From: Psammoneis japonica
Lineage: Eukaryota
DNA: 64,000 nucleotides
Reading direction: 5' to 3'
NCBI GenBank assembly: GCA_008632985.1
Contig: QPGO01000092.1
Span: 248,001-312,000 of the forward strand
Positions within the stretch are counted from its first letter, which is position 1, and each line of letters starts with the position of its first letter. Below are positions 27,501-63,500 of this stretch, one piece after another. Below the pieces are notes generated by a model, which was not told the DNA's origin, did no database searches, and saw nothing but the letters and a program-made list of their open reading frames with translations. The translations under genes and the position numbers were made by a program.

Positions 27501-28348
27501 CCATCACGGCTCTCTCCAAGTTCTCGACCTGTCCTGCTGTGGTTCACTGTGACGTGCTCAAAGGAACATGCAAGCACCTTCGATGCACCAAACATTGGGA
27601 ATTGAACTGCAGGAAGCCCACCCGAGACTCCAAACCACCTGCCTGCCCCTTCGAACGTCTCACTCCGGACCCGACCTTGCCATCATTCCCTTGTCCTGCA
27701 TGTGATCATCAACTCGTTGCTTTCTTGGATGCTGCTCATGGCAATGACCTCCGCAACCGTCATTCTACGACTGGCTGTGCTTGCATGTTAGCTGGTGCTG
27801 CTGCATCTTTTCGGTGCAAGACCCAATCGGTGACCACTGCGAGCTCTACGGAAGCTGAATTTTGTGCTGCTGGAGCTGCTGCCAAGCATGTCCCATGCCT
27901 TTGTCACGTTCTACAAGACCTGGGCTTCCCTCAGACGGAGCCAACCCCGCCACACATTGACAACGAATCGGCGATCAAGATCATCAATCACTCGATCCCG
28001 ACTGAGCGATCCCGTCACATTGAGACTCAGTTTTTTGTGATCCAAGAATGGAAGGAAGCGGGCAAGATTGTCACGAGACACATTCCTGGCATTGTCAACC
28101 CCAGCGATGACCTCACCAAGGCCCTTGGCTGGGTGCCACACGCTCGCCACGCTCGACGCATGATGGGACACTGCTGTTGACATTTTTTTCCGCGGTGGCC
28201 TCCCTGCTGCGCATTGCCCTCTTGTTTGATGGCGCATTGGGCATGGACACTTCTCGTGTCCCATGTCTGGTCTCTCTATTTTTTCCTCACATCATCCCTG
28301 TTCTTTGGTTTGATCTGCACTGTTCTCTGTGTTGAGATGTTGCAGATC

Positions 28349-28553
28349 AGGGGAGGGTGTCAGCCTGTCTGTGCCTGTCGCATGATGGACAGACTGGATG
28401 CTGATGATGGCTAGACCATTTAGACAGACGAGCAGATCTCTCTGAGATCTGCTTCTCACTTTCTCATCTGCTAGAGTGCTCGTGTTGTCACAGTCCTGGT
28501 GCTTTGGGGAGTCTTTCACACCTCTGTCACTGTCGACCTTCGGCATTCTGTCA
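28349..28553 (+). repeat. Polypurine tract (aggggaggg, 28349-28357) and 3' LTR (28358-28553, 196 bp)
   Basis: Purine run abuts tgtcagcctgtc...ggcattctgtca. Confidence 0.95.
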
Positions 28554-30323
28554 GGATGGAGGATGCGTCTTGCCCTTGCACAAGCTTTGTTTGTGCCCAG
28601 TGATGTGCTCCTTGTGGACGAACCCACAAACCATCTGGATTTTCATGCTGTTTTGTGGTTGACCGATTTTCTCTCCAACAGCGGTCAAACACTAATTGTC
28701 GCATCGCACGACCGTGTGTTTCTTGTCATGTGCACCGACATCACATCCTTTGAATGCCGGAAGCTCAGCTGCCACGTCGGAAACCATTCAGCATGCCGTC
28801 AGCAACTGTCAGAAATTGCGGCACGACAGGCGCAAATTCTCGACGCTTCCGAACAGAAACGCGCCAAGGCTGTTGCATTTGTAGAAAAACAACAAGCCAA
28901 TGCCAACAAAAAGAAACAAGACCCGAAGAAGCAACGTCAAGCAAAGATGGTTCGGGAAAAGAAACTAGATTGGATCGGGAATTGCAGGCAAGATGGAAAA
29001 CGACACAAAAACATGTCTCTCAAGAAAATGAGTGAAGACTGCATGCGCGTCGCAGAAAAAGTTGCCGTCGAAGCCGATGAACCTGTGCTTAGATTCAAGT
29101 TCCCCACTCCATCGCGGGGACCCGGCATGGGCTTGGGAAGCAATTCGCTCTTCACATTGGATGATTTCTCGTTTGGATGCGATCTAGATCGGCCCTTGCT
29201 GATCCGAGAAACAACCCTTGCTTTAGATCGTGGGAGCAAGGTAGCTGTTGTTGGAAGAAATGGAGGTGCGTGTGAAAGAAACAGTGATGCATCCGACCTG
29301 TGATTCACGTCGTCTTACATCAATTCAATGCACTCCGTTTTGTTGCCCCAGCTGGTGAATCAACGCTGTTGAAACTCATTGCAGGCGATTTGCCCCCAGA
29401 TGGACGATCTGTGTGCAGTTCAAGTGGTGGAATTTGGCGCCACCCATGCTTGCGGGTGGGCCATGTTTCTCAGCATTGCGCCGAAGAGTTGGAGCAGCAC
29501 TCGGACTTGACTGTTGCATCACACGCCGAGAGCTGCTTAGGGTCGGGCTCAGCCTGTGGTGAAATTGCCATGAAGGCATCTGGAAACATTCGCCAGCATC
29601 TTGGAGCCTTTGGCCCAGGTGGGAAACATGCCCTGAGAACAATTGGCAGCCTTTCCGGAGGCAAACGAATGAGGCTTTGCTTTGCCACCGTCATGGCGGA
29701 GCGACCACACCTGCTTGTCACCGATGAACCAACAAATCATCTTGATCTGGAAACACTGGATGCCTTGTCCTCTGCTCTCAATGACTGTGAAGGAGCTGTT
29801 GTTGTTGTGAGCCACAACCAAGGTGCGTGCAGGACGACAACGAACGATGTGACCTAGAATCTCGCTTGTGACATGACCACACTTACGCTGCTGCATGTGT
29901 TGCTCCAACAGACTTCCCACGCGGATTTTGCAATGAATTGTGGGTTGTAGAGAATGGTCACATGGATGTTAGACACAGCGACACGGAGAGTTTTGAAGAG
30001 ACGTTTGCCAGCTGCCGAAGTGATGTCATGAAAGGAGCGAAGCAACGCGGGAATGCACGAGAAAGCAGAGCCAAGATGGCGAGGCGAGCGAAGCAGCAAA
30101 GGGCCGGGGCGCAACTTAAGAGTGGTTTCATTGGACAAACTGAAGCCTGGCTAACTGCTGTTGCTGTTCCATCCTGGTTTCCCTTCATTTCATCAGTTGG
30201 GGAGAACTGCTTGTGGGAAAAAGACAGTCTCTATTTTGTTTTGTCAGATCTCAATCACACATCATCAACATTCTCGCAACAAACGATGGGTGTTCTTTGT
30301 CTGTTTTGTTGTTGGTGCCCCCC

Positions 30324-30713
30324 GACGGGTTCCAGTCCTAGGTGGGACTCCGTGTGACATTGGGCCCGTAGAATTCTACGTGCGAGCTCCGTAGTACGAG
30401 AATTTAATTAATGGATATATTTATCTTCAACATCAAATAAACTGCCAAGTTTGTGGTACAATTATGCCTCTTGCCACTCGACGTTTTTGCAAATGCGCCT
30501 GCCCTACGCGATTCTTAAGACATTATAGAATCGCGCTGTAACAAAAAATGTCAAAAGTTGTTGGACGGATCGCTCAATAAGTGTACCGTAAAATGACACA
30601 AAATATCGAAAAAATCACGTAGAAATCTACGTGCGCGACATACGACGTGATTCAAAAAACTATCGATGTCACAGTTCAGTAGTACGAGGTCCCACCTAGA
30701 CCTGGAACGCGTC
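30324..30713 (+). mobile_element. Young MITE (390 bp) with ~26-bp imperfect TIRs and 4-bp TSD CCCC
   Basis: gacgggttccagtcctaggtggga ... tcccacctagacctggaacgcgtc, flanked by cccc on both sides. TpA-rich although the flanks are TpA-poor. Confidence 0.9.
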
Positions 30714-30719
30714 CCCCAC

Positions 30720-32130
30720 ATGAAACTGCTGCTAACTCCACTCTGTGCGTCTGGCGTTTTGTTTGCGGCCAGCTTTCTCATGTGGCAATGGCGACTGTCA
30801 ACAATGATGGCGGCGATGTCATTGCAACAGATGCAACGTGTTCTCACCCATCCAAAGATCGCAGCGCCCCGAAGCGTCCAACGCCACCTCTTCAGCTGTG
30901 TTGTCAGGCCATGCTTGAGCAAGGAAAGCAATGTCACGAATGCACGTCGCACGTCATGCTTTCTTTAGAAGAAAAGCAGCCACATGTTGATGTGTGCAAT
31001 GCCGACATGGACAGGTTTCGGCTCGAGCTCGAGGCATGCAACCCTCCACCAGGATGCGACCAATGCGAAGCATGGCTGGAATCAACAAGTTGGCATGACA
31101 TCGTTGCCAATCCTTCCATGGTCGAGTCGGCAAGCATGGGCTGGGAAAATTTTCATCACATGGCGACTTTGTCGGATTGGGAAAAGCAGTCGCGCTTTGT
31201 CAAGAACTTTCGCAGGACACATTTCGTCGATGACGAGTCCATTGACTGGCATGTGACGCCCGACGACATTCCAATGAGATTCCCGCACATGTGGAGGATG
31301 TTCAACAAGTTGTCGAGTCATGGGTGAAACAGATGGAGCTGGACATGACGGGTGGCGAATGGAGACGGCAAGATCATCCGGCGACCATGACGCTGCTTGA
31401 CGACGGTTCGCCGGCGGCAGACATGACAGTCGTTGCCTTTGAATCCAATCAAGATGACAAGCTGGAACATTGGAGAGGTCCACATGATGCGACTTGGGTG
31501 GCTTTGGAAACACATTCAAAGAAAGCTCTCATTGTGGGGACATTTGGTGCACATCTGGTGGTTGTTTGCAACCTGCTGGAGTTTTACAACAGCGATGGAT
31601 CGACTGCCATGAGCCATGACCTACCGACAGAAAAAGGTTCAGAACTGCTGGCAGCAGCCCTCAAGATTGCTCAAGAGTGTCTTTTTGACCAAATGCACCA
31701 GTCGCTGCAAGGATTCGCTTTTGGTTTCATTTGTTGGCGTTGCGTGTGTTCGAGCTTCTACAACCGCACTCGGCACTGGTTGTCTACAACGACCTGTCAC
31801 TGCAGGCACCGCTTGCTTACGATGATCATTGAGGACCACGACGACAAAGGCGGCACCGCTTGTGCTGACAGTCTTTGTGTTGCATCTGGCTGGGCATCAA
31901 CATTCCCTGAAGCCGGACTCTGTCAGCAGACGTCAGCACAAACTATTGTCACATGGCAAATGCAGAGCCATTCATTCCTTTTCGGCACACATTGTGGAGC
32001 GGCAGCCAATGAACGGGGGGTTGCTTGTCGCAAGCGGCAACGGCTCAACGCTCAACGGCAAGAATCTCGCCAAGACCAATCATTGGACAAACTAACGTCT
32101 TCCCTACCTTCCATCTTTCCTACTGTGTGA
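30720..32130 (+). pseudogene. Degenerate coding sequence of unknown function (ORFs 30782..31327 and 31291..32130, frameshifted)
   Basis: Long overlapping protein-like ORFs, Tyr-poor and Cys/His-rich, TpA-depleted. Confidence 0.4.
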
Positions 32131-37475: not shown

Positions 37476-37931
37476 CGCACCCTCGTCGCCCTCGTCAACG
37501 TACCAATTTTTGGCGCCGAAAAGGATTTGAGATTTTTCATGGTTGGGCGCGCGTGCAATCTTTGCTCGCTTGTCTGTATGTGCCGTGCTGCGTGCTTGCA
37601 ATTTCCTCGCGATGACGCACGACATTGCGCGCGCCACACTTCCTCACCAAAATCTTTCAATCAAGTCGAGCGATTCGAGAAGTCGTTGCGCCACCGGCCA
37701 CAGTCGTGGATGATCAATTGGAATATTAGGCCTTGTATACAATTTTTAACGGCTTTTTTGAAATTTTCCTACGAGAAAATTGCGTACAAGAGCGGTGTAA
37801 ATTTTTCCAGGTGGCACTTCTAAAAATCTCAGAATGGTACACAAGCAGGTTACCGGCACCATAACAACCATAACAAACTGATTCGGCTGAGAACACTCAC
37901 TGTTGCTCATCCACTGCACTCCATTCTTATC

Positions 37932-40081
37932 TTGCAGACATTTCAATTCTGCATGTCTGTCAAAGCATCGCGTCGTCACCGCTTCGCAATGGAACGCAGG
38001 AATCTGGTGGTGTTTGACGCCAACGCAAACGGAGTCGCCAAAAGGTCTCCGGCCTACAAGAATGAAGCAACGAAACTGCTGCAGAATCTGTTCCCTCGAC
38101 TTTCCTGCAGAGCGACAGGAAAAGTTTTCGACGACGTCGACTTTCAGTTTCCGTTGGCTTGCAACACTCTGGAAGCAATTTGGGCAGTCTTCCCCGATGA
38201 CGCGGCGGTCGCAAACGCGCATCCACGGGCTACGCTGACTGGCATCAAAATGTTCCTCAAGAATGATTGCATCAAGAATGCGAAGCGGGTCAGCAACGCT
38301 TTGCTCTCACAAGAGATTGATGCTGTCCCGCAGCTCAACACGAAAGAGAACCGCCCTCCTCCTCCCGTGGTGGACTCCATCGAACCGCGCGATCACTTGA
38401 AGGTGCCATCCTCCTCAAGAACGCTCTACGAATGCGGGTGCTGTTTTGGAGATGACTTCAAAGTTGAGGATGTGAGCGAATGCAGCGCGAGAAAAGGACG
38501 CCACTGCTGCAACGATTGCATTTGTCAACATGTCAGCGAGCAGCTGGACGGGAACAACAGCACGTCTTTCTGCTGCATCATTGATCATGCTTGCAAAGCT
38601 GCTCATGCAGTGGCGACTTGTTTGGATCAAGTTCCATCTCCAAACCTCCGAAAGAGCGTCAGTGATCGGGTGGCCCGAGAGCATGTCAAGAAAGCGGGCC
38701 TTCTCGGCGGAGACGAGCTGTGGCACGTTGTTTCTTCCGATTGGTTTCCCCTCTGATGCGATTTGCTGCAGCTTTCTCACAATTTGCTTTTTCTCAATCC
38801 ACCGTTGCTGCTTGAAGGACCTGCTCGACTTGTGAATGCTTGGGATTTCTCGAAGGGAGGCATCCAACGGTCTTCTGCCCCCCTTGCAAGAGAGAGTGCT
38901 GCCGCAAATGCCACGAGCCAGTGCACCATGGAAGTTCTTGCAAGGACGTCAAGGCTGAGAAGGAACGCAAGAAAGACCCCATTCACCATGCAGAAGAGAG
39001 AATGTCTGCAGCGACCACACGCAAGTGTCCAAAATGCTCTGCTGAATTCCAGAAATGCGATGGCTGCAACAAAATCACTTGTGCAAAATGCAAAGCCTTC
39101 AGCTGCTGCCTTTGCCGTGCACAAATCGAAGGCTGTGGTCACTTTTGCCGCGTCTTTGATTGTGATCGCAGTTGCAACAAATGCCATTTGTGGGAAGATG
39201 CCAAGAAAGTTGATCGCGAGGCTCGCAAACAAGCCTGCCTTGCTGTCCCACGCGATGAAGCAGGCTGCACAGACGAGCAGATTGCAAAGACAGGATTGCT
39301 CTCACCAAAGGACAAGGCAGAGGGCAAGAAGACGAAGAAAGCCGCAGTCAGACCACCGGCCTTTTTGCAAGAAGCAGCTTTCCCGCCCATCCCCGATGCG
39401 GTGCCCCGCCCCATTGCCGCTGCTGCGGCTGCTCCTCTGCCACCTCATGTGCGGCCACGTGATGCAGCTGTCCTGCCCGTCCCCAATGCGGCGCCCCACC
39501 CTGCTGCCGCTGCTCCTCTGCCACCTCATGTGTGGCCACATGACACAGCTGTCCCACCCGTCCCCGATGCGGTGCCCCACCCTGTTGCTGCTGCTGCGGT
39601 TGCTCCTCTGCCACCTCATGTGTGGCCACGAGATGCAGCTGTCCCGCCCGTCCCCAACGTGGCTCCCCATCCTGTTGACGCTGCTCCTCGGCCACCACAT
39701 GTGCGGCCACATGATGCAGCTGTCCCGCCAGTCCCCAGTGCGGCACCCCACCATGTTGCCACTGCTTTTGCTGCTCCTCGGCCACCTCATGTGCAGCCAC
39801 ATGATGCAGCTGTCCCGCCCGTCCCCAATGAGGCGCCCCACCCTGTTGCCGCTGCTGTCGCAGATGCTCTGCCACATCATGTGCGGCCACGTGAAGGAAT
39901 TTGGCGAGTTAATGCTCGGGGCGATGTTTGCATTGATGGCTTGGTTTGTTTTGCACTGGTTGTTCTGATTGCTCATGTTTGCTTCCCAGGCATGAGCCTG
40001 CGTTACATTGTGAGTCTGACAATCATGCCATGCATCACACCATTCTTTCATGCAATGCATCGCAAGCTTTCCTGCAACTAG
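37932..40081 (+). pseudogene. RBR (RING-IBR-RING, RNF216/TRIAD3-like) E3 ubiquitin ligase pseudogene, copy A; intron 38723-38817 with donor reading GC
   Basis: ECGCCF...C...CC.DC (RING1), CPPCKRECCRKC...H...C (IBR), KCPKC...K.DGCNKITC..C...CC.C (RING2). Splicing restores ELW-TCSTC. Confidence 0.85.
39375..39895 (+). repeat. Coding minisatellite of about six 81-90-bp units (AAVPPVP.A.PHPVAAA.LPPHVRPHD)
   Basis: Repeats of gatgcagctgtcccgcccgtcccc...ccacctcatgtgcggccac; only about two units in copy B. Confidence 0.9.
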
Positions 40082-40779
40082 AGAGAGAAGGGTCGTGTGG
40101 ATGATGATGCATCGAAAGGCACAGGAAACAGCGAGAGGCTCTGCTCTGTGAGTTGAATGATTTTGATGTGTGTCGATCAGTTGGCAGATGCAACGACAGA
40201 AGATCTTGTGCACACTTGAACTCCCCTGTTTTCATTGTGACAAAGATGTTGCATGTGAAGTGGACTCGCGATTTCTTTGCGAAGAAGCATTCGCCGTCTG
40301 TTTCTTGTCAGGGTCACGAGCTCTTTCTTGCATTGGCTAGATTGTCTTGTTTCCATTGACTGTCTTGTTTCTGTTGACCACTTTGGTGACAGCGTGAGTT
40401 GTGATCCCGATGAACATGCTAAAAAGCTAACACGAGAATGAGGTTTGAGCTAAATCCTGCTTTTTTATTCTGGGTGCCCAAGACATTTTCATCGCGAGCT
40501 TCCAAGACAGATGCAGTCTCGATTTTGCATTTACGAGACGTCTTGTCTGTCACAGCGGGCAATGGGCTGTTGACAACACATCAACTGCTTGCTTGAATGC
40601 TTGAGGATCACTTGCCAGTGCAACATCTGTCGTCACTGGTTCACTTTCGAATGTGGCATGTCCTCCTGCATGAGCTTTCGGTTTCAACCTCTTTCTGATG
40701 ACTGCCATTGTGCATCAATGCTTTCATCTGATGATGAGTCCACAGACTTTGCTTCTTCCACAAGCGACGGCACTCATGC

Positions 40780-43700
40780 AGCATTGCTGCACACAAGGTG
40801 GCAATGATGCAGGAGTCCTTCAAGTGCTGCACCGCACCACCCAACACCCGATTGCCGTGGCCGGGCCGGACCAGCCGTGGGACGGACGTTTCTTCTCCAT
40901 TGTCGGGAACTTGACAATGGGACAGTGCAATTTGGCTCTGCTGGCCAACTGCGCCTTCCAACTGGTGCCCCAGGGCACTTGGGCACCTGGCGATGAAGCG
41001 CTGTCAGGAGTGCATGTTGCGTCAACACTGGAGGGGACACACCACAGGTGGTGGTGCCCAATGCACAGAACGCAGTTGAAGTCCACACACAGTTTGCAAT
41101 GATGGTGCCATTCACGTTCGTCAATTTTGTTGCTCAACACTCCGCTGTCACCAGAACAAGCCTTTGTCAGAGTGCATTGGCCACCACCATGTCCAACAAT
41201 GTTGTGGGTTGCTTCTGGATTTTTTGAAGGCAGCGTGTTGTGCCGTGGCAGTGGATCAACATGTGTCACCAGTGGCACAGGACTGGCCAGCCATGGTGCC
41301 ACCACCAAATGAACAGCTCACTAGCTTCTTTGATGCCATGGTTCAGTGAGACCTGCCACACTGTGTGGGCCAGCCACTGCCGCCTTGCCAATTCAAACTG
41401 GCAGTCCCGGCTGTCCAAGATCTCACTGTCAAACAACACCAGCAACAATTGGATGCAATGGCAAGACAGCAGGCAGCAGCATGACAAAGACACGCACCAA
41501 GTTTTGTGGTGAGTTTCGAGTTGCAAAGCTGATGTGCCTGTGTCAGGCACACAGCCAAGACAACTTGCCACCTCTTTGTGCACAGCTGGCAGCATTGCCA
41601 AAGATGGGGTCACTTGCCACTGTGCAGAAATTGACGAGCAGCGTCAGGCTCACCACATGCATTTCAATGTCCCAGCACAGTGAGCTTGGTCACGAAGCTC
41701 ACGCAGATTGATTTTGCCTGACACAACAAAGACAAGCTGTCGCAAGGTGTCAATCCATTCTCATTCAGTGTGACCACACCAGAACAAGAAGCCGAGCAAG
41801 TGGTGTGCCACAACACCATGCATCAACAAATCCATGGTGGTGAGGGGGCACCATCCCCAGCCAACACCAGGGTGCTGGAGGCACTGGATGATGCCATGGT
41901 TGCCACGCTCCAAGTGGCACAGCAATCATGCAATGGGCTGTGCATCGTCTTGTCAGTGGCCTTCGGAGTTGCACACCCATTGGTCCAGTGGCTTGCCCAC
42001 ATGCACCAATCCATGGACATGCAAGCCAACAATTTGGCAGTCCAAATGATGATGCACCTGATCCTGCCAGCGAACTTGCAATGCTGTGCACAAGTCAAGA
42101 TGTGCCATTGGCTGGTTCCAGACCCAATCTTGCTTGCACAACCCAGTGCCATTCCAACCCTCTCAGCAGTGGCAGAAGTGGCCGATGCACTCCAGCTCTG
42201 GGTGGGACGTCGTGCTGCTGAGCTGTGACATCAACAGTTTTTTGGATCGTGCCGTGAAATTGTTTCATGCTCCCTGATTTGCGAAGCCAAACACTTTCCA
42301 TTTTCAACATTTGTGAGAATGAAAATGTGCTGGGTGTGTTCTCTGGTGTCTGCAGAACATGCTTGGGCAAACTGTCAATGATGTGCTTCAAGTGTGAAGG
42401 AGGAGATGCATTCAAAAAATTGTCTCTTTTTCTGTTGGCATTCATTTGCATTTTCATTGCTCAACAAATTTGCTGCAGAGCTTGCACGCAGAATTCTGCA
42501 GGCCAAATTTCACACGGAGTCCCACCTGGGGCTGGAACCTGTCAACCCAAGGAGCTCACCACTGGTGGTTAGATTCACCAACCACAGTGTGCAAGCCAAT
42601 GACGCAGCCCCGGGAACAGATGCTCCAACAGCAACCACCAACAGAGCAAAGCAGCACGCCCAGTGACATCTCCATTGCATGCAACAAGCAATGCGGTGAG
42701 CATTTCACAGTCCTGTGAGAGCGGCCCAATGTGCAATCATGGAATGTCAAACAGCAGTGTGCACTTGACAATGTCACCTTGCTAACAACAAAGCAGCAGC
42801 CACACAAACTTGACAAGCACAACTCAGATTCAGTGCGAGTTCACTGTTGACTTGGCATGCTGCAGCTGGAAACCATGGAAACCACATCACCATGGCCGTG
42901 ACTCTGTGGCAGCCACTTTCTCAACAACATTGCCTTCAAGAGTCACAACAATCAACAATGTGTTTCATCTTGCAAACTCATGTGCAGCACAATTGACATG
43001 TGAGAGTGTGATGGGCTTGTTGTTGACTCTCATGCGGTCGAAAAGCGATGGTCAGAAAATTGAACATTTCAGCTGTTTTTGCTGCAATGAATCAATTTCA
43101 AAGCACAGTGAGGCAAACACATTTGAAATGAATTGCAAGCTGTCAATGTGTGACAGTGTCATGGTGAGTTTGTGGTTGTTGATGGAGTGCATTGCATTCC
43201 GGTTGCCATTGTCATTGAGTTTCAACAAGTCGTTGGTCATGGAAAATTTGAAATGTCAAACATTTGTGTTTAGAGGTGCATTTTTTGACATGAGTTCTTT
43301 GCATCATAAGATGGCACACATGCAGAGCATTTGCATTTTCCCAGCATGACAACTCCATCAATTTATGACATGTCGGCATTGACCGCCAATTGTGACATGC
43401 GTTGAGGTTCACACACAAACATTGGGCTTGCCGCTGGCAAAAAAAGGATGTTTAGAAAAAAATTGGTGGGTGTCAAGACCATCACCCATCTGCATCTAAG
43501 CCAAATCGGCATGGTGCCACAATGTGCACGTTGACCACGCCCAATCGTGGACTGCATGCACTGTAGAGTGAACCCATCTGCACATCCCAATGCCTCCATT
43601 GAATCCATGCAACTTGGGTGTGCGCTTGATTGACTCCTCCAGCACATGTCACTTGCCGATCCATCCAAGGGCCAGGTCCACCTGATGAAGATCAACCCAG

Positions 43701-45806
43701 CCGATGGCTTTTGCCACATGCACCTTGCACTGGAACAAGCCCCCACACTTGGTGAGGTCTTTCCACACTCTGCTGGGTGAGCCATCCACAGTGGCAATTC
43801 CTGCATGGCTCCCCATGGGATGGTCCAACTCCCCGCTGGCCTTCAGCACAGTTGCAGAAACAGTTGCAGATGTCACCAATCAACAACCACTGCACAAATG
43901 TTGAGCACCACACCACCCACTTGAGCACCACCTCAAGAGCTGCCCACCAAAACATCAACACATTGCTTTGGATGCACACCCTGACATCACTGTCCCAGTG
44001 CCATCAATGATTTTGTCGGCGCGGCACAAGGCACACAACCAGCTCTTTGCAATGTGCATTGCATCATTGTGCATGCAATCAATGACGTTTTCCAAGCACT
44101 GGATGACCAGGATGCCATCTGCACGTCACCTGCAAGGCCCTGATCTTGGTCAAAAAACTGCTCAAAGGTGATGCAACCTGGTTCACACAGAAGGAAGTGT
44201 CAGGATGGATCATCATCAATGCTGCCACCATGACCATCCACCTCACACTTCAATGCCACAAATGCTTCTGCAACATGCTGTTCCATGAGTTTCCCCATCA
44301 TCACAAATGGGCAGTGCTTGCCAACCTGCAAAAGCTCCTTGGAGAAATGTGCTCCCTCACACCAGGCATCCCTGGCTCACACAATTTTTTCTCTGAACTC
44401 CAGGAGGCCCTGCTCCACACAACACCTGATGGATGAGTGCGCCTCACCCAGAACTTCCATGAGGACATGCTCCAGGATTTTTGGGACTTGCATCATGGCC
44501 TGGATCTTTGCCCAACCCGAATCCAGGAACTTGCCCCATTGTTGCCCATTGTCATGGGGTGCCACAATGCTGCAGGCCATGAAGCCGGCGGCGCCCTTGC
44601 ACCAAGAATGCCAACGGCATCTTGACATGCCACCATGCCATGCCACTCCAACACCGGCCACCGCTGACCTCAACTCAATGCAGGACCCATTGCATGGTGC
44701 ACATGGGTTTCCCACACAAGGTCACATGATGTCTGGTGACCTTCCACAACCCGTGCGGCCCCATCATCAACACCGACCTTTAATTGGTGGGGAGCATTGT
44801 GCAGTCCTGTGCTGCAGCAGATTGTTTTGACATCCGAGAATGCACTGTCCTTCACCACACCGACAATGCCAGCACTCTGTTTTGCCAATGCAAGGGGTCC
44901 ACCACCACAACAAAACCAGCATCAAAACTGCCATGATGCCAAGGCCACCACCAGCATCATCATTGCTGCCTGTTGCTCTACAACTGCCTCCCAGGCCCCC
45001 TCAACACCACTTGTGATGATGCATTGTGCCCACAACATTTGTCCAGCCATGCCTTTTTACACTGTTTTAACACTTGCTGTCCACAGGCTCCATCTTGGTG
45101 CCTTTGGACTCCACCACCTGCACTGCGTTCCTGCATGATCTCAGTGCTGTGCAACATGCCATTGCCCGTGGCATTGCCACTTCTGCCACCAGCTCCAGCA
45201 ATGCCCACTGGGACAAGTGGCGTGAATTTTGCAGTGACTTGGCTGGCCATCGACCTTCTCCTTCAAGACATTGACAACCCAGTCATCTTTTTCCAAGTTT
45301 TCCTGCACCAATTCCACACAGGTGCTGTCACCCCACATTTCAATCCTGTCTGGGCATGGACTGCTGAGGGTGCCCTGCAGTTGATTGGCCAAACATTTGC
45401 TGCAATGGGGCCCCCGGACCCATGGCACATGCTCCAAGGGAAAATGGATTTCTGCCTTGGCCGCCAAATCCGTTTCTACAAGAAAGAGGATCCTCCGCCC
45501 GACCGGGTCAAACCGGTCCCCCCGTTGCAGTCCTCCTCTGGACAGCTCATGCTGCTTCTTTAAGCAACAATCCAGGAACACAGACCATGGCAGACTTGAT
45601 TGCTCCAGCCTTTTTCTTCCTCCTCTGTCCTGGCAAACACAGTGCCACTCCCTCCGACACCACACCCTTCCGGCTGGGCGATGTTCGTCTCTCCACCAGG
45701 GGAGCCTGCCTCAACCAGTTCACTTGCACCACCAACAAAGAACTCAACGGCATGCTCACCTTCACTGCACAGAAGAATGGCATGCGTGGCAAAGTGGTTG
45801 GCCTTT
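40780..45806 (+). mobile_element. Degenerate tyrosine-recombinase retrotransposon (DIRS/Ngaro group), 3'-truncated and carrying nested insertions
   Basis: RT: LMKINPADGFCH (=KIDLADGFY), LPMGWSNSP.AF...ETVAD, KKLLKGDA.W...KEV.GW. Tyrosine recombinase: IGQTFAAMG..DP, YKKEDPPPDRVKPVP, AFFFLLCPGKH (=LLRPGEY), LTFTAQKNG. The 5' boundary is approximate. Confidence 0.85.
42184..42543 (-). mobile_element. Old, TpA-converted copy of the MITE (ends closest to the 30324 copy)
   Basis: gatgcactccagctctgggtgggacgtcgtgctgctg ... cacacggagtcccacctggggctggaacctgtc; TSD not preserved. Confidence 0.8.
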
Positions 45807-46596
45807 ACAGCCCATTTCCTTCATGGCCAGTGGAGTTTGTTGTTTGACACTAGAAATTCTGTCAACAATCAACCAATGCATCTGCTTCTGCCGGGCAAAT
45901 CACTTCATTGCAACACACCCATCGAAGCTAAAGACCATCTCTACAATGTTCAACAGGCGATTGACTCTAGACGTCCACGACAGTTGACAAATCTGTTGAT
46001 CCTTTTGAGGGCCTGTCGCGCAGAAAAAATGCGTGCGACTCAGTTCCCCCGATTTTTCGCATCAACAAAATGGTGCCAGAAGATTCTTCTTTTTTCATGT
46101 GTGTTCTTTACACAACAAAGAATGCGGACATCCTTTCAAAGTAGTCAAATGCGATGAAAGAAACACAAAAACAGTGCCTCAATGCCGTTCCGAAAACTGC
46201 CGCGCGTAGTTTCCCGTCATTTTGTCGCCAAAAAATCGATTCCGAAAGAGCTTTCTCTTTTTGTCCGCACCCTCCAACGAACAAAGAAGGCTGTCGGCTG
46301 TTGAAAATAAACAGATCTGATGAAAGAAGATGCGAAAAATTGGGGGAAAGCATGAGCTCGGATCAGAATTTTTTCTCGCACAAAAAGCACAGTGACGGAA
46401 AACAGACAGATGCAATGTCACACCCTCGTACGCACGTGACCCACCTGGGATGAAAACACATTGGCACTTTGTTCTCCACCCCAATGCCGACATGCAACTC
46501 GCTCCCACCTGCCCATGAGCTTCACTTGCCGTGTCTCAGCCTTCCAGGTGGACCCACCCACCCTCCCAATTTTCACTGCCACCACCTCCTGCACCA

Positions 46597-47004
46597 GATG
46601 CACCCCAGATGCAGGTGGGGGAATCCCTCTGCGACATTGGGCACATGCAGAATTCTGCGTGCGAGCTCTGCAGCAAAATTGTCAGGCAATGAATGTGCCA
46701 ATGATCCCCAACAGAAAATGAGGCAATTTTGTGAATGCACAAACTCGTCCATGATTGACACACATCATTTTTTGCTTGGTCACCAGGTGCATTCTCAGAC
46801 ATTGAAGAGTGCACCTGGCGCCATTGTGTTCCTGTGATTTCATCAAACAAAACGTGTCTGGGGTTTCACAAAACAGCAAGTCTGGAACAATTTTTTGGAA
46901 GATCACATGCAGAAAAAATTACGCGCGAAACATGTGACGGATGACAAAAAACAATTGTGTCACACACCAGCACTGTGACCTCCCACCCAGGACTGGAATG
47001 CGTC
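46597..47004 (+). mobile_element. Old, TpA-converted copy of the MITE (same subfamily as 62899), TSD ACCA
   Basis: Aligns end to end with 62899-63294; acca at 46593-46596 and 47005-47008. Confidence 0.9.
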
Positions 47005-47054
47005 ACCAGTGCATGTTGGTGGTGCCAGAACAGCCATGCCATCCCAGCTCAGGA

Positions 47055-47525
47055 ATGGAAAGGGGCCAACTGCGCCAGTGAAGTTGCTCCTCCCATCACT
47101 GCAAAATCCCAGTTGCCTGCTCACACTGGAATCAGATCACTGCAAGAGGTCAAACAAGCAAAGCGATGCCAGTCACTGGCCTTGCAAAGACCGACAAGGG
47201 GAGATGACCTTGGCTCTTGTGGCCAGTCAATGGCACAATTGGGAGTCATCTTCCACATCACCAGCAGCATTGAACGCATCTTAAGTTGGCATTGGAAAAG
47301 AGCTGCTTTGCTCATTCTTCCAAAGAGCTCTTCAGCAGCAAGCCAAACAGACAGTCTAAAAGCGCTCCCACCTCTCCCTCCCTCTTGCGCCATGCTGTCA
47401 TGGCTTGGGAAAGGAAAGGGACCAACTGCACTGACAAAGTCCTCCCATCCCTGCAAAATCCCAGTCACCTGCTCACACTAGAATCAGATCACCGTAAGAG
47501 GTCAAACAAGCAAAGCAACGCCAGT
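47055..47525 (+). repeat. ~115-bp direct repeat pair (47055-47170 and 47413-47525)
   Basis: ggaaaggg.ccaactgc...ctgcaaaatcccagt..cctgctcacact.gaatcagatcac...agaggtcaaacaagcaaagc occurs twice. Confidence 0.8.
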
Positions 47526-47555
47526 TGCTGCCTGTGGTGACACCCAAATTTTTGG

Positions 47556-50331
47556 CTTCTAGCCCCAGACTCCAAGCCAAGCAATGAGAGGAAGCTGTGG
47601 CTGGGTGAGTTGCGGAGGTCATCACGGAGGTGGACCAGCAAGGGACAGATGGGAGGCCAAGGACAGAGGACAGATGGACATGACGAGATCCCAGACATGA
47701 CCAATCCACGCATTGTTCCCTTGGCAGTCAGCATCAGAGGGGTTGCAACAACCATGGTCCACTGCAGCGACCATGCCTCATTGCAAAGTTGTTGCTCTGT
47801 TGATGATTGTCAAGGATCTGGGAGTGACATGTGTCCTCCACATGTTTGCTCTGTCAAATTCTGTGCTCATGATGGAGCAACTTGACTGAGATTCTGGAAC
47901 CGACTCATGAACAGTCATTGTTTCCGTCTCTCTTTTTTACTGTGCCAATGCAGCACTGCCTGATGCTGAGAGGATGGTCTCCTCTGTGTGACAAAAAGCC
48001 AATTTCTTGACAACCGCTCAGTGCATGGGTTGTGCCCTTGCCGACAGAACCAGCCGCATGCTGCCGGCCATGGTCAACCCCCTAGCTGGCACGAGGGTGG
48101 ATGTGCAAATGTGTGTGCATGTGAGTGCCCATTGAGAATGGTCTCTCTGTTCCTCCCTGGTTGTTCAACTGCCGGTCCCGCATGCTTGGCGCTTGACCAC
48201 TTTGTGTCCATCCATGCCACGAATGTTTTGATGCAGGCACGGAGCATGTTGGGTCCTCTGAGTGCCAGTGCCTGCTCACACAAGAGCAACCATCACGCAG
48301 GGTTTCATGGCTCACATTGTTTGCAGCCGTTGAAAATTTTGAAAATTCCTGTAAAACACCATGAGGAATTTAATCACGATTTTCGAAAGTCATGGACAGG
48401 ATGCTTCACACACAGAGTTCATGGTGGGAAACTTTGAGAGCATCTCCTCAAAATTTCCGAACTTGGTCAATCGCAACGGGTCTGTGAGGTTGTTGTTCAA
48501 TGACTGTGTTCACTCCTTCAGCCACTGCCATCCAGCGGGGTCGTGGTGCTGCTGACCAGCACCACATGACAGCTTTCCCTTTCTCAGACAAGAATGAAAT
48601 GGCACTGGTGTCTGTGCTTTGGCCTGGTGTGACCCATGAGGTTTGCCATGCCATCGCATCCAATCCGATGAAAGCAACCCAGTTTGCCTTTGTTTGCTCA
48701 AAGCGGATCATGATTCTTGCCCGCCCTCAAGTTTTTTTTACTTCGACAGAAGGGACTGCTTCTGTCATCAGGAGCTTGTTGAACGAGATTGGTGGTCATG
48801 CCCCAGTCTCTGTTGCTCTCAACTCCTTTCGAGCTTTGACGACTTCGCTCCTCCCAGTGTGATCGGCAACGGCTTTCCACCTTCCCAAGTTGGATCAGGT
48901 GCCGGACACTGTTGACAGCCCAACAACTCTGCCGGAGGATGACCGAGTCGCCTCTGTGGGGTGTCTGCTTTTTCCTCTGCCTGCAGCTGTGGAAGACCAC
49001 ATTTTGGTTCTGCCGCTGTTCCTGCCTCTGCCGCCAGGGAAGACTTTCCCTGGTGGCATTCCAGTGGGCGAGCCCACTCCTGAGTTGGACGTGGATTTCC
49101 CTGCTCTGGGAGCTGCATGGAAGCGTGGCATGCAACACATTGCAGCAAACAATGACCAGCATTCGGTCATGAAGGGTGGCCCTTTGTTCAACATGACCAA
49201 GATGGACGACACTGCAGAATTTGATGGTTTTGCACTCACGGATCGTCTGCTGCAGGTCACTGATGTTGCCATCCTGGCACCTGTCGCGGACTCCTGCCAT
49301 TTGGTCAAGCAGTCTGTGAAGGCTTTTGATGCCCTGGCGTGGGGCTCTCTGGGGTCCGACGCAGATGCAGATGATGCAGCAGTGCCAGCACCGGCAGTTG
49401 GTGGTGTTGGTGACAATGGCGGTGTGACAGTGTGACAAACAATCAAATTGCAGCGTTGTGTCAAGGGATCGCCGCGGCACCCCGCCCCCCCCACTTGGAA
49501 GGAAGAGGAGCATCTTGAGGTTGCCACTGAGCATGCCCCGCATTGGGGGTTGGTTGCAGGGTGCATTGCTCCTCCGCTGGAGAGCTGCACCCAGAATTCC
49601 TTGTGGTGCTCAAGGTTGCCGACAAATTCGTGGCCACGTGCAAATTTTAGGATCTGGTTGCCCACATCTTAGCTGGGTTGCATGCCCCAGCAGATCCTTT
49701 TTGGACAAGTTGACGCATCTTTTGCACGAGGTCATCAACGAAGCATTCACTGCAAGTGTGCGTTCGTTCCACGTGCACACTCAGCCTGCAACCTGCAGTG
49801 TGCAGGGAGGTGCTGATCCGCTGAGGCGGTGGCGCCGGGAATCCCACGGGGATTCTTCTAGCCCCAGACTCCAAGCCAAGCAATGAGAGGAAGCTGTGGC
49901 TGGGTGAGTCGCGGGGGTCATCACGGAGGCAGACCAGCAAGGGACAGATGGGAGGCCAAGGATGGAGGACAGACAGATGTGATGAGATCCTGGACATGAC
50001 CAATCCACACATTGTTCCCTTCTTGGCACCAGTCAGCATCAGAGGGGTTGCAGCCATGGTCCACTGCAGTGACCATGTCTCATTGCAAAATTATCCCACC
50101 ACATGCCCACCCTGGCTGTTTCGGCACAGTGCCGGACATCCTCTGTTTTGTCTGGGCTGCATTGCTGCAGACCTGCAGACTCGCACATCTGGGCTCCCAT
50201 TGGCTGCTGCTTCTACGGTGTGCAACTGCTGCTGTCCATTGCACACCTTAGATCTGGTGCTGTGGATCACTGTTGCACGTCATTGAGGTGCTGATCCGCT
50301 GAGGCAGTGGCCGGGAATCCCACGGGGATTC
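47556..50331 (+). mobile_element. Element with split direct repeats (A1 47556-47787; B1 49808-49855; A2 49855-50088; B2 50286-50331) around a broken ORF; Ngaro-like deletion derivative
   Basis: A = cttctagccccagactccaagccaagcaatgagagg...ctcattgcaaa; B = ggtgctgatccgctgaggc.gtggc..cgggaatcccacggggattc; internal ORF fragments 48500-49435. Confidence 0.6.
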
Positions 50332-52768
50332 GCCGAAAGGATTTGAGATTTTTCATGGTTGGGCGCGTGTGCAGTCTTTGCTTGCTTGTCTGTGTGTGTG
50401 TGCCATGCGTGCGTGCGTGCATGCAATTTCCTCGCGATGACGACTTTGCGTGCGCGACGCGACACTTCCTCACCAAATCAATCTTTCAATTGAGTCGAGT
50501 GATTCGAGAAGTCGTTGCACCTGCCACCGGCCACACAGTCGTGGATGATCTAACGGTTTTTTTGAAATTTTCCTGCCAGAAAATTGCGTGCAAGAGCAGT
50601 GCAAATTTTTCCAGGTGGTGCTTCTAAAAATCTCAGAATGGCACTCACTGCTGCCGGTGCGCAGGTTTGCCGGCACCAACCATGATGAACTGATTCATTC
50701 GTTGAGAACACTTCCTGTTGCTCATCCGCTGCATTCCATTCTTCTCTTGCAGATGTTTCAATTCTGTGTCTGTCAAAGCATCGCGTCGTCACCGCTTCAC
50801 AATGGAACACAGGAATCTGGTGGTGTTTGACACCAACGCAAATGGAGTCACCAAAAGATCTGCGGCCTGCAAGAATGAAGCAACGAAACTGCTGCAGAAT
50901 CTGTTCCCTTGACTTTCCTGCAGAGCGACAGGAAAAGTTTTCGACGACGTCGACTTTCAGTTTCCGTTGGCTTGCAACACTCTGGAAGCAATTTGGGCTG
51001 TCTTCCCCAATGACATGGCGGTCGCAAATGTGCATCCACGGGCCATGCTGACTGGCGTCAAAACATTCCTCAAGAAAGATCGCATCAAGAATGCGAAGCG
51101 GGTCAGCAACGCTTTGCTCTTGCAAGAGATTGACACTGTCCCGCAGCTCAACACGAAAGAGAACCGCCCTCCTCCTCCCGGGGTAGACTCCATCGAACTG
51201 CGCGACAACTTGAAGGCACCATCCTCCTCAAGAACACTCTGCGAATGCGGGTGCTGCTTTGGAGACGACTTCAAAGTTGAGGATGTGAGCGAATGCAGCG
51301 CGAAAAAAGGACGCTGCTGCTGCAACGATTGCACTCATCAACATGCAAGCGAGCAGCTGGATGGGAACAACAGCACGTCTTTCTGCTGCATCGTTGATCC
51401 AACGTGCAAAGCTGCTCATGGAGTGGTGACTTGTTTGGATCAAGTTTTCTCTCCAAACCTCCGAAAGCGCGTCAATGATCGGGCAACCCGAGAGCACATC
51501 AAGAAAGCGGGCCTTCTCGGCAGAGACGAGCTGTGGCACGTTGTTTCTTCTGATTGGTTTCCCCTCTGATGCGATTTGCTGCAGCTTTCTCACGATTCGC
51601 TTTTTCTCAATCCACCGTTGCTGCTTGAAGGACCTGCTCGACTTGTGAATGCTTGGGATTTCTCGAAGGGAGGCATCCAACGGTCTTCTGCCCCCCTTGC
51701 AAGAGAGAGTGCTGCCGCAAATGCCGTGAGCCAGCGCACCATGGAAGTTCTTGCGAGGACGTCAAGGCTGAGAAGGAACGCAAGAAAGACCCCATTCACC
51801 GTGCGGAAGAGAGGGTGTCCACAGCGACTGTGCGCAAGTGTCCAAAATGCTCTGCTGAACTCCAGAAATGCGATGGCTGCAACAAAATCACTTGTGCAAA
51901 ATGCAAAGCCTTCAGCTGCCACCTTTGCCGTGCACAAATCGAAGGCTGCGGTCACTTTTGCCGCGTCTTCGATTGTGATCGCAGTTGCAACAAATGCCAC
52001 TTGTGGGAAGACGCCAAGAAAGTTGATCGCCAGGCTCGCAAACAAGCCTGCCTTGCTGTCCCACGCGATGAAGCAGGCCACACGGACGAGCAGATTGCAA
52101 AGACAGGATTGCTCTCGCCAAAGGACAAGGCAGAGGGCAAGAAGACGAAGAAAGCCGCAGTCAGACCGCCGGCCTTTTTGCAAGAAGCAGCTTTCCCGCC
52201 CGTCCCCGATGCGGTGCCCCGCCCCATTGCCGCTGCTGCGGCTGCTCCTCTGCCACCTCATGTGCGGCCACGTGATGCAGCTGTCCCGCCCGTCCCCAAT
52301 GCGGCGCCCCATCCTGTTGCCGCTGCTCCTCAGCCACCTGATGTGCGGCCACGTGACGCAAGAGCCTGCATTATATCGTGAGTCTGATGATCATGATACA
52401 TTATAACGTTCTTTCACGTAATGTATCGTGAGCTTTCCCGCAACTAGAGAGAGAAGAGTCGTGTGTCTGATGTTGAATCGAAAGGCACAGAAAATAGCGA
52501 GAGGTTCTGCTCCGTGATTTGAATGATTTTGACGTATATCATCAGGTAGTCGATGTAACGATAGAAGATCTTGTGCGCACTTGAACTCCCCTGTTTTCGT
52601 TGCGACATAGCGATTGCATGTGAAACGGACTTACGATTTATTTGCGAAGAACAATTTCGCCGTTTTTTCTTGTCGGGGAATGACGAGCCCTTTCTTGCAT
52701 TAAGGCCGATCCAGTTGAACATGCTAGTTGACAGCTAGCACCAGACTGAGGTTTGAGCTAAATCCTGC
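50331..52768 (+). repeat. Segmental duplication, copy B
   Basis: Collinear with 37514-40460. Confidence 0.95.
50750..52381 (+). pseudogene. RBR E3 ligase pseudogene, copy B (extra TGA near 50910)
   Basis: Same RING-IBR-RING motifs as copy A in ORFs 50967..51569 and 51653..52381. Confidence 0.85.
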
Positions 52769-52789
52769 ATTGTTTATCCTGGGTACCAT

Positions 52790-60599: not shown

Positions 60600-63500
60600 C
60601 CTGGTAAACTGTCTGGAAGCCAAACAAAAAAATGACTGCATCTCAGGGTGCCTGTGATCCTTGGCTGCAACAGGTGCTTTTGGTCCTCAAACTGGCAAAA
60701 AAGAAATGACTGCGTGTGCTTCACAGAAACATTTCTCTCATTTGGCCCAATCTCTGGCCACACTGAAGCTTTTGTCACACCTGTTCAAAACCACATCAGC
60801 AACCCTAGAACAATGCTGCTCATCCATCAAAATTTTGTCATGCTCTCTTTGTCTGTTGGATTGTCTCTTCCAAAATGATCTCATTTTGCATGAATGCAAA
60901 CCAATCTTCTGCCAGATCCAAATGGAAATTTGTGCCATCAAGTCAAGCTTCCAATTTCTCATTGAACACAACTGCCTTGTCACTTCTTGCACTGTCATCA
61001 TTCAAACAGTCATCTCACAAATCACATGATGTCTCATGCTGACAAAACATCTTTGAAATCAGCTGTCTGCTCTCAGCACTCTCAACCTGCAATGCACATT
61101 GGACCCAACACAGTGCAACACACTAAGACAACAATCCAATCTTCTTGGATCATCTGCTGCCCACTTGAATTGCAACCCCATGCTGTGCAAAACAGATCAT
61201 GAAAAAGCTCAAAATCTGGGTGCGCCATCAATCAGTCTTGGCAATTTTTGTCCTGTGGTGTCCTCCCAGAAGCCAGCTCTCAAGTGTTTTTTCTGCACTC
61301 CATGAGCAGTGGCAGCCATGCCTTGCAGACAAGACCACAAAATCCCAAAGATGCTGCATTTGAACTTTCTGCCTGTGAGCCCTCTTTTTGTCAAAAAAAA
61401 CCTGCTTTTTTCTCCTCTCTCTGTCTCTTGTCTCGGCAGCGCGGTGGTTTTGGTTTTCTTGCCTTGTTCCAGCACACACACAATCTGATCCTCCTCACTC
61501 TTTGAGCATGCACTGCAGTTTTGTTTTGGCCACCTGTGAGCTCTTTTGCTCCATTCATTGTCAATCTGATGTCATCTGTGAAGTCAACAAGCAACCCATC
61601 AGCTTTAGAGTGTGTGCCCATCAGACAAACCTCACCTTTGCGCAAATTTCTCTTGCACAAACAGCTCTTGTTTCACTTTGTTCAACTGCTCAAGTGCACC
61701 AAGATTTGAGCCAACACTTGCTGGGTCCCAAGCACCATTGGCAAAAACAACATCAGGCAAGTGTTGTTTTTTTTTCACTCAGCCAGAGCACACAAGACCC
61801 AAAGCACATGCAACTGTCCCAATGGCATGAAAGAGGATGAACACTTTATCTGCCTTCTGAGCGCCAAAGAGAATTTCTGGGACCAAACAGACCACACTCA
61901 CCACTCACCAGTGCTGGGACATTGTGCACATGGCTTTGATTTGGGTCAGTCAAAAATGGCCAAAAACATCCTTTCAAACCACAACATTTGGTTGCCAGCC
62001 AACAGGCACACAAGACTTCTTTCTTGTGCTTGGACATTTCCAAACAGCACAAACAACAAGCAAGAGCTTCTTTGTCTGAGTTGCACAAGCCCAAAATGGG
62101 CGCTAACCTCACACACCTTTTTTGCAATTTTTGCTGGCTTCCAATTTGCACCAACACAGCAAGCACCAAAATGAGCATTTGACTCATTGTCTGCACAGTG
62201 ACCAGAGGCTCTGAAACACTTTGGTTTGCAGCTGTTGCTGCAATGGAACAAAAACACTCTGTTTTGAGACAACACAAATGCCCCAGTGTTTTTTTGTTGA
62301 CAAGATGATCAACAACAAAGTCCCTCATGTCACCCAATGATGCACAGCATGTCATCAATGCTGTCAGTGCCACCCTGCTCTTTGCTGCAGGCACAAAAGA
62401 GTGAGCACTGTCTCTGAGCCTGGCACTGGTGCTCTGACCTCCTTTTTGCCCCAACCCCCTGTTTCCAGAGTCAGCCTCAGTTGTGCAAAAACAGCAAGCC
62501 CCGCCAACAAGAAATCCAGCACTGCTCCAACACCTTCTTTGTTGTCCCAGCCCCACATCCAGCTGTGCATGTTTCCAAGCCACTTTTTCTTTCATTTTGA
62601 TTCAGTGCTCACTTTTCCTTGACATTGTGACTGTGCCCTTCATTGCAGCCACCCTTTTGTGTGCTGGGACAATGAACACCCACAATGCCACCATCATTTT
62701 GCAACATTTGCAAGCAGCCCCACTTGTGCATCAGGTGAAAAAACAAGTGTGCCAAACTGAACACTGCACCAGTGATGAGCTGTTGATGACAGCTGTGCAC
62801 ACCAGCTGAGGTGTTGCCTCTGCCAAGCACATGTGGAGGGCCACCTTTGCCCCTGCCAAATTGCCTCCATCTGCTGCAACTGCAATCAGAGGGGTGCTGA
62901 CGCGTTCCAGACGTAGGTGGGAATCCGTGTGACATTGGGCCCGTAGACTTCTACGTGCGAGCTCCGTAGTAAAATTACACGGTAATTAAAATGTCAATGA
63001 TCGCCAACAGAAAATGAGGCAATTTTGCGAACGCACAAACTCGCACATGATTGAAGTACATCATTTTTTACTTAGCCAGTTACATTCTTCAGACATTGAA
63101 GAATGTAACTGGCGCATTATTGTTTCTATAAATTTGTTACATAAAACGTCTGGGGCTTCGCAAAACAGCGAGTCTGGACAATTTTTTTTAAATATCACAC
63201 GTAGAAATCTACGTACGAAACATACGACGGATGATAAAAATTATTGTTGTCACACGTCAGTACTACGAGCTCCCACCTAGGGCTGGAACGCGTCTGCTGC
63301 AAGCATCAGCAGTCTCTCTCTGAAATGAGTTTTGTTTTGACAAGGGACAACTCTCAAGCTGAGCACATCGTCCATGCAAGCTGAGCACCTGAAATGTGAG
63401 AAGCAAGAAGCACAAGCTCCTGAAAAGTCTCTTGAACAAGGCTGGTTGTTGGCAGCATGTGAGTGTGCATCTCAGAGGTGGTGTCTTGACCTTTTCTGTC

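Follow-up and report, generated by a model that had tools for sequence, protein, structure and literature searches.

TpA-poor domains in a diatom genome, probably shaped by position-dependent mutation after integration

A stretch of 64,000 nucleotides from the diatom Psammoneis japonica (GenBank assembly GCA_008632985.1, contig QPGO01000092.1, positions 248,001 to 312,000 of the forward strand), termed here the window, contains long blocks in which the dinucleotide 5'-TA-3' (TA or TpA) has nearly disappeared and TG and CA are in excess. One of them, the focal block, begins inside the first copy and ends inside the second copy of a direct duplication (copies A and B). The gene within the duplication is of the RNF216-like RBR ubiquitin ligase type (PDB 7m4m, E=1.1e-14), and a spacer separates the copies. 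Block coordinates were obtained by a two-state hidden Markov model segmentation on TA positions, and profiles by dinucleotide counts per kb. In the ordinary DNA of the window the per-kb counts give a TA observed/expected ratio (o/e) of 0.55-0.7 and a CpG value of ~1. In the TA-depleted blocks TA o/e is 0.00-0.15 per kb, with zero TA in one 1-kb window, and TG and CA reach values up to ~2. The focal block lies between a left flank at 32093-37928 (216 TA in 5,836 bp, o/e 0.55) and a right flank at 52372-60605 (328 TA in 8,234 bp, o/e 0.60), and the TA density beside it is ~37 per kb. The components of the locus, with window coordinates and with the strand where one applies, are the following:

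37929..52371: focal TA-depleted block, 57 TA in 14,443 bp (o/e 0.07; TG 1.77, CA 1.62)
37517..40466, plus strand: copy A (intergenic 5' flank, RNF216-like RBR E3 ligase pseudogene, 3' flank), defined by alignment with B
50333..52775, plus strand: copy B, direct duplicate of A, without ~445 bp present in A (A39549-39993)
37517..37928, plus strand: 5' part of copy A, outside the block; 15 TA, of which 7 sites are TG/CA in B
50333..50742, plus strand: 5' part of copy B, inside the block; 2 TA remain, both in the refractory CTAA context
A 37929..39548 and B 50744-52361, plus strand: middle part, TA-depleted in both copies; 14 CA-versus-TG sites
39994..40466, plus strand: 3' part of copy A, inside the block; TA gone at 12 sites kept in B
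52362..52775, plus strand: 3' part of copy B, outside the block; 22 TA, highly mutable contexts included
38816..40081, plus strand: exon-2 frame of copy A's RBR gene, with IBR and Rcat domains followed by Pro-rich repeats
51629..52381, plus strand: exon-2 frame of the RBR gene in copy B, in the same reading frame as in A
40467..50332: spacer (the supposed nest of transposable elements, TEs), CpG-poor, with internal repeats and two decayed miniature inverted-repeat transposable elements (MITEs, ~400 bp); parts of it have a depth of 100-8,000x in a public sequencing run

Copies A and B align over their whole length, and the additional ~445 bases of A form an 81/90-bp tandem repeat. A preliminary description of this DNA had proposed that the duplication straddles both edges of the block, at ~37.9k and ~52.36k, and that TA retention is reciprocal at its two ends. 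The alignment bears this out: 37929 falls within A and 52371 within B, the segmentation having given precisely these two edges, and all three pairs of strings quoted in the description were found where they had been placed, the 3' pairs at A40125 and A40186 (the letter denotes the copy, the number the window position). Over the 5' flank, 7 sites read TA in A and TG or CA in B, with the converse at 0; over the 3' flank (last ~410-470 bp) the polarity flips, B having TA and A having TG or CA at 12 sites, again with the converse at 0. Per-site losses along the full alignment are therefore reciprocal rather than symmetric (Fisher P=2.0e-5). The raw counts run the same way, with 15 TA in A and 2 in B at the 5' end against 7 in A and 22 in B at the 3' end. 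Between the two copies there are 23 single-step TA-versus-TG/CA sites in all.

The first 412 bp of A and the last 414 bp of B are unmutated, and these stretches lie at opposite ends of the duplicated sequence. The TA dinucleotides kept in both outer flanks include GTAC, GTAT, ATAT and ATAC, contexts nearly extinct inside the blocks, so that the flanks are truly unmutated and not merely refractory. The TA still present in the 3' part of A stand mostly in CTAA or CTAG contexts. The escape of ~410 duplicated bases in each copy and the matching reciprocity of CpG loss (see below) support the earlier proposal that targeting follows position and not homology. In the shared middle part, 3 TA are left in A and 1 in B. 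At one of its 14 sites where one copy reads CA and the other TG (A39107), homologues from outgroups carry Tyr. Both copies were thus mutated independently in the shared stretch, after the duplication. Transversion divergence between A and B amounts to 16/376 in the 5' flank, 29/408 in the 3' flank and 16/1,618 in the shared stretch, figures that partly reflect misalignment around indels.

The preliminary description had also considered that the duplication might be an assembly artefact of two haplotypes. This was examined with contigs from a public sequencing run, which is possibly the window's own source sample and is then independent of the assembler only. Their depth is 57-62 against 58-60 across the A-specific, B-specific and flanking stretches, and contigs cross the left end of A, the right end of A and the right end of B, three of the four ends. 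With equal depth and end-crossing contigs, A and B are not two haplotypes placed in tandem. The run also differs from the window at 24 positions in the block (37929-52371) and at 0 positions in 3,058 bp of flanks (36500-37928 and 52372-54000; P=0.006). Sixteen of the 24 differences are CpG-related, in both directions, and 3 are TA in the window and TG/CA in the run. This excess suggests raised heterozygosity or recent mutation within the block, a hint of current activity; a few of the differences possibly come from contigs of one copy placed on the other, and the contigs give no rates.

The direction of the change was established from three genes lying in blocks, the duplicated RBR gene and two further features:

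20071-21396 and 28446-29303: ABCF-type (ABCF1/YheS-like) pseudogene, split by a Copia insertion
21344-28559: Copia element in the ABCF gene, with long terminal repeats (LTRs) at 21344-21570 and 28335-28559

A word-index homologue search with the RBR fragment gave no match, and an exhaustive profile-free search was used instead; of the 2,178 relatives it returned, the best 50 were taken and 49 aligned, one being dropped for short overlap. Four columns of the alignment carry Tyr in 53-98% of the 49 homologues, and at all four (4/4) both copies carry Cys or His. At residue 98, where 47 of 49 homologues have Tyr, A reads TGC and B reads CAC; by its sequence this is an ancestral TAC altered independently on opposite strands. 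Neither copy retains a Tyr codon over the first 175 residues of the frame. The ABCF gene, a host-derived pseudogene swept into a block, has 0 Tyr in 728 residues, and its motifs RCGLVG and GNHS have Tyr-containing counterparts in solved relatives. In the Copia reverse transcriptase (RT), 24 columns have at least 60% Tyr among 58 homologues; 23 of these are occupied in the query, by His (10), Cys (9), Tyr (1), Phe (2) and Arg (1). Tyr has therefore given way to His or Cys at 19 of 23 columns, and at other conserved columns 257 residues agree and 63 differ. Tyr makes up 0.19% of this RT, and the median over 120 homologues among the matches listed is 4.15%. Cylindrotheca and Nitzschia also provide matches to a Copia RT. 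As conserved Tyr columns read His or Cys in three in-block genes, TA is ancestral and TG/CA derived, which settles the polarity assumed in the preliminary description. The direction known from repeat-induced point mutation of fungi (RIP), where C changes to T at CpA and TpA rises, was not found at these columns; the change runs the opposite way.

The timing and the strand of mutation can be read from the same Copia element. The two LTRs of one element are identical at integration, owing to the mechanism of reverse transcription. Here the pair shows 21 mismatches over 222 aligned bases, and 14 of these belong to 7 CA-versus-TG sites. These sites and the 14 of the same kind that distinguish A from B show that chromosomal DNA was mutated after integration and after duplication. 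The ratio of His to Cys in the Copia RT (10:9) reveals no strand bias.

CpG loss at the focal locus forms a second, narrower domain:

38780..51551: inner CpG-loss domain; A depleted to the right of ~38750, B to the left of ~51560

In the A/B alignment up to A38738, A has CG and B has TG or CA at 23 sites, with the converse at 5; beyond A38738, A keeps 2 and B keeps 30 (reciprocal CpG retention, P=1.0e-9). The loss covers ~1.7 kb of A and ~1.2 kb of B on the side of the spacer, and CpG o/e in the spacer itself is 0.06-0.5. The TA block exceeds the CpG-decay domain by ~0.8 kb on the left and by 0.5-0.8 kb on the right. The pattern is the one expected of decay at 5-methylcytosine (5mC), in which CpG turns into TpG or CpA in a silenced region only, and it is centred on the spacer. 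Two independent mutation types thus appear to radiate from the spacer, as the spreading of a silenced, methylated state would give. Close to the CpG switch point the RBR gene has a probable small intron. In the larger block at 6757-32092, CpG o/e is 0.09-0.26 at 7001-19000 and 0.64-0.89 at 19001-32092; because these halves differ within one TA-free block, TA loss and CpG loss are separable. Several TA-free stretches retain a CpG o/e of 0.7-0.9. A constant 0.8-kb offset between CpG and TA loss was considered and discarded, as it fails for the block 6757-32092.

The TA density of the blocks relative to normal DNA depends strongly on the neighbouring bases. It is 0.007 for ATAC, 0.008 for ATAT and 0.026 for GTAC, 0.04-0.17 for mixed contexts, and 0.35-0.40 for CTAA, TTAA and CTAG; RTAY (R, purine; Y, pyrimidine) is nearly extinct and YTAR partly spared. 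This ranking accounts for the CTAA or CTAG context of the few TA left at the inner ends of the two copies. It recurs in a related Copia family from metagenome contigs (described below), in which 83% of ATAC and 37% of CTAA have been lost. At sites whose two strands differ in this respect, the mutated A is more often the one before a pyrimidine, in 20 of 27 informative events and in 176 of 290 events of the metagenome family, these latter not being independent. By the measure of survival, a T following the A is no worse than a C. An assignment of the strand of the mutated A from the 4-mer product excess in blocks against normal DNA was set aside, because CpG decay and composition confound it, and the polarised events were used instead. 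The motif 5'-TAY-3' calls to mind the preference of TadA-derived editors for UACG-like sites, according to the published account (PMC8052359); the likeness is one of resemblance only. As proposed for Bigelowiella natans (see below), a TadA/ADAT-like enzyme may deaminate adenine in the DNA. An identical pattern would follow from modification of the paired T (5'-RTA-3').

The focal block is one of several in the window. The six block segments cover 46,044 of the 64,000 bp, with TA o/e of 0.03-0.15 and TG/CA of 1.5-2.1. The segments and the remaining features are:

1-3630; 6757-30338; 30734-32092; 37929-52371; 60606-62913; 63279-64000: TA-depleted block segments, from the segmentation
6757..32092: second, larger TA-depleted block, with an RT/RNase H relic, the ABCF pseudogene, the Copia element and one intact MITE
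30339..30733: young MITE, still intact, lying in a block; TA o/e 0.92, CpG 1.48
62914..63278: young MITE, still intact, lying in a block; TA o/e 0.84, CpG 1.48
42180..42560, minus strand: old MITE copy with TA changed to CA/TG, by alignment with intact copies
46600..47010, plus strand: old MITE copy with TA changed to CA/TG, by alignment with intact copies

The blocks hold the Copia element, the RT/RNase H relic, a Mutator-like open reading frame (ORF) and MITEs, as well as the host-derived ABCF and RBR pseudogenes, and the normal stretches carry intact genes (MYST, RsmB-like, DUF1275). The MYST acetyltransferase gene at 53436-55475 (minus strand) is 67% identical to its best match. Its best matches lie in raphid pennate diatoms, the named ones being Nitzschia, Pseudo-nitzschia, Epithemia and a Bacillariaceae metagenome-assembled genome, and the host is a pennate diatom. 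On the left side of the focal block a plus-strand gene ends at 37475. The segment 3631-6756, which adjoins the Mutator-like ORF at 3-1181, was segmented as normal, yet has a TA o/e of 0.42 and TG/CA of 1.4-1.5, and may be a partly mutated or mixed zone. TAA and TAG have been destroyed in the blocks and TGA is the sole remaining stop; long open frames consequently overlap one another in several frames of either strand, as at 23721-25985 and 38757-40231. No tRNA was found by ARAGORN at the block borders, where one was sought as a barrier. The lone call, at 20877-20972, falls within the ABCF frame and is probably spurious.

The intact MITEs are ~380 bp long, have terminal inverted repeats of ~25 bp and apparent 4-bp target duplications, and belong to a high-copy family. 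The two old copies in the spacer are members of this family and are fully TA-mutated. Graded loss was also found outside the window. A related Copia family was reached in metagenome contigs via a Tyr-poor homologue and comprises 35 loci, 27 of them distinct. Over the same RT segment the TA o/e of the 27 distinct copies ranges from 0.00 to 0.83. Loci L008, L024, L029 and L026 stand against L006, L014 and L028 in this range from TA-free to normal, and the whole 5.5 kb of contig L008 has a TA o/e of 0.01. This graded loss means that at least one further organism, uncultured and presumably a diatom, has the process. That a homologous partner is not sufficient for mutation is supported jointly by the escaping ends of A and B, the intact MITEs and the graded Copia copies.

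The interpretation that we consider probable is position-dependent mutation of TA after integration, within contiguous domains. A mutator would convert the A:T pair of 5'-TA-3' to G:C, yielding TG or CA, on integrated DNA. Its domain at 37929-52371 would be centred on the spacer, taking in ~2.5 kb of the left gene copy and ~2.0 kb of the right one, and would stop at sharp borders within duplicated sequence, beside intact neighbouring genes. The fate of a base pair would be set by its place in the domain and not by its homologous partner. The narrower, concentric decay of CpG to TpG/CpA, a signature of 5-methylcytosine, would mark the domain as silenced, methylated chromatin, and the TA mutator would reach past this CpG-decay core on each side. 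A wider proposal is offered more tentatively, as possible but somewhat short of an even chance: that diatoms possess a homology-independent, chromatin-guided defence erasing TpA from silenced domains, probably by adenine deamination at 5'-TAY-3', with a fixed short spread beyond the 5mC core and a halt at active genes.

Several observations weigh against this interpretation. That the focal domain is heterochromatin is a suggestion drawn from CpG decay only. The CpG switch falls at one homologous coordinate in both copies (A38738-38780 = B51551-51593), a coincidence with an estimated chance of ~0.1, and the CpG-decayed unit equals exactly one repeat period (12.8 kb), so that a recombination chimera is conceivable. 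In the block 6757-32092, TA loss reaches ~13 kb past the strongly CpG-depleted core. For the right edge of the focal block only an interval, 52081-52371, can be given, as the Pro-rich repeat there holds no informative TA. CA-versus-TG sites also occur in the "unmutated" flanks of A (A37662, 37815, 37874) and of B (at A40020 and 40063); they may represent low-level mutation outside the block or former CpGs. The intact MITEs within blocks mean that block location is not sufficient at all times, and TA mutation in those blocks may be episodic or may have ended. None of the 22 spacer ORFs has a Pfam match at E up to 1. Of the earlier proposal that the domain is centred on a TE nest, the repeat-bearing, CpG-poor spacer with its two MITEs was recovered, and a recognisable TE protein was not. 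Finally, in the heterochromatin-dependent branch of Neurospora RIP the linker between repeats can be mutated, and the focal block is likewise bracketed by direct repeats.

This last point leads to the explanation that the duplication is the cause, the direct repeats being recognised by pairing, as in RIP, and mutation being laid on their inner parts and on the linker. The placement of the block, partly inside a pair of direct repeats (about 2.5-3 kb each) and partly in the interval separating them, agrees with it, as does the independent mutation of both copies in the shared stretch. We nevertheless regard it as unlikely. Mutation of both copies along the full duplicated length, as RIP would give, was not observed, since ~410 duplicated bases at each outer end (the first 412 bp of A and the last 414 bp of B) are untouched despite having the most mutable contexts, and no bracketing duplication was found around the other blocks searched in the window (6757-32092 and 60606-62913). 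Copies of a high-copy MITE remain intact inside blocks, one Copia family ranges from unmutated to saturated, and the chemistry is reversed, TA being destroyed rather than made. Slightly less probable still is a chimera, in which a premutated 12.8-kb unit (right part of the duplicated gene region, spacer, left part) joined the intact gene by a single crossover near A38750 and the pattern was inherited. It would explain why the CpG switch has the same homologous coordinate in A and B; the TA edges, however, lie off the switch point, TA loss continuing on either side for another ~0.8 kb into what would be chromosomal sequence, and independent CA-versus-TG sites lie beyond the unit, 9 of them left of the switch and 5 right of it. 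Because of these TA hits outside the 12.8-kb unit, in-place, position-dependent mutation would be needed even if a chimera had formed.

The other explanations are far less probable. Uniform, genome-wide pressure from TA to TG/CA, with purifying selection keeping TA in functional DNA only, fits the presence of pseudogenes and TE relics in blocks and of intact genes in normal stretches, but it is very improbable, given that pseudogene copy B still has 22 TA in its 3' flank and the same sequence in A has 7, that the edges are sharp, that normal regions including intergenic DNA are at TA o/e 0.55-0.60 throughout, and that the young MITEs are intact. Editing before integration (of ADAR or APOBEC type), such as that of TE RNA by an ADAR-type A-to-I activity or that of cDNA, then fixed by retrotransposition, would share the change of A to G after a 5' T (U) and the retroelements found in the blocks. 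Under it, edits common to both LTRs and untouched host flanks would be expected; instead, the Copia LTRs differ at 7 CA-versus-TG sites, the ABCF and RBR genes of the host and the DNA-transposon MITEs are mutated too, and His:Cys at 10:9 shows no strand bias, which leaves this explanation scarcely credible. Just as implausible is the reverse polarity, a RIP-type change of CpA to TpA having made the TA of the outer flanks, or an artefact of assembly. A difference between TA and TG/CA carries no direction by itself, but the outgroup Tyr columns supply one, and the TA level is ordinary in normal regions and near zero in the block; an artefact of assembly is opposed by the full single-copy depth of both copies and by the contigs spanning three of the four ends.

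Position-dependent loss of TpA can be compared with several known systems. Fungal RIP resembles it as a defence-like hypermutation of a single dinucleotide that inactivates mobile DNA, leaves a strong skew and can spill into neighbouring sequence. RIP, however, makes TpA from CpA and follows duplicated sequence, whereas the process in the diatom destroys TpA and lets the duplicated outer ends escape. The enzymes of RIP are cytosine methyltransferase-like proteins. The decay of 5mC-marked transposons likewise turns CpG into TpG/CpA in the spacer and in the inner parts of the copies, as a separate and narrower signature. TadA/ADAT deaminases and the adenine base editors derived from them target an A preceded by U or T, as is the case here. 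ADAR hyper-editing is alike in changing A to G and in its 5' U preference; ADAR acts on RNA, whereas integrated DNA is affected here, on both strands.

The nearest counterpart is the rhizarian alga Bigelowiella natans, in which TpA to TpG/CpA hypermutation was measured directly in mutation-accumulation lines, 124 TpA-depleted clusters were described genome-wide and an ADAT2-like candidate enzyme was proposed (Mettrop et al., bioRxiv 10.64898/2026.01.13.699255). According to the main text of that preprint, the change is exclusively A:T to G:C at TpA and leaves TpA-poor, CpA/TpG-rich regions of many kb, as in the diatom. RT and DDE-transposase domains are enriched there among TpA-depleted genes; the diatom blocks bear TEs together with host-derived pseudogenes and two intact MITEs. 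In both, the process appears episodic. Two features of the B. natans process, A:T to G:C change at TpA (polarised here by outgroups) and clustered TpA depletion with gain of CpA/TpG, were found in the window. The two cases differ in host (a diatom, hence a stramenopile, against a rhizarian) and in target, which is TE-bearing DNA with adjacent host-derived pseudogenes here and, as reported, integrated giant-virus/virophage DNA in B. natans. They differ further in depth of depletion, with o/e 0.07 here (0.00 in single 1-kb windows) against 0.45 in the nucleocytoplasmic large DNA virus (NCLDV) region of B. natans. The main text of the preprint contains nothing on borders, extended context, a link to CpG decay, or diatoms. 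A literature search found no report of TpA hypermutation in diatoms, its coverage of subscription journals being incomplete. New in the present analysis are the sharp borders inside duplicated DNA, the context rule, the coupling to CpG decay, the proof of mutation after integration, the young MITEs left intact in blocks and the graded TA loss of a metagenomic Copia family.

TpA-specific hypermutation has so far been presented in this single preprint on one rhizarian alga, whose main text leaves the choice of target open. The locus described here is a natural experiment, as the same sequence lies inside and outside the block at both edges and it is the "where", not the "what", that decides. It adds diatoms as a second supergroup lineage among eukaryotes, together with a link to a nested domain of CpG decay, and provides the coordinates at which a chromatin boundary can be sought. 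For diatom genomics, in-block genes lose Tyr codons and TAA/TAG stops and keep long frames, which leads to mis-annotation and over-called genes, and TE ages estimated from LTR divergence would be inflated in blocks. If the wider proposal is true, the system would parallel fungal RIP but run the chemistry in the opposite direction and pick its targets by another rule. With the same signature in a rhizarian, it may then be old and widespread in the SAR group (stramenopiles, alveolates and Rhizaria).

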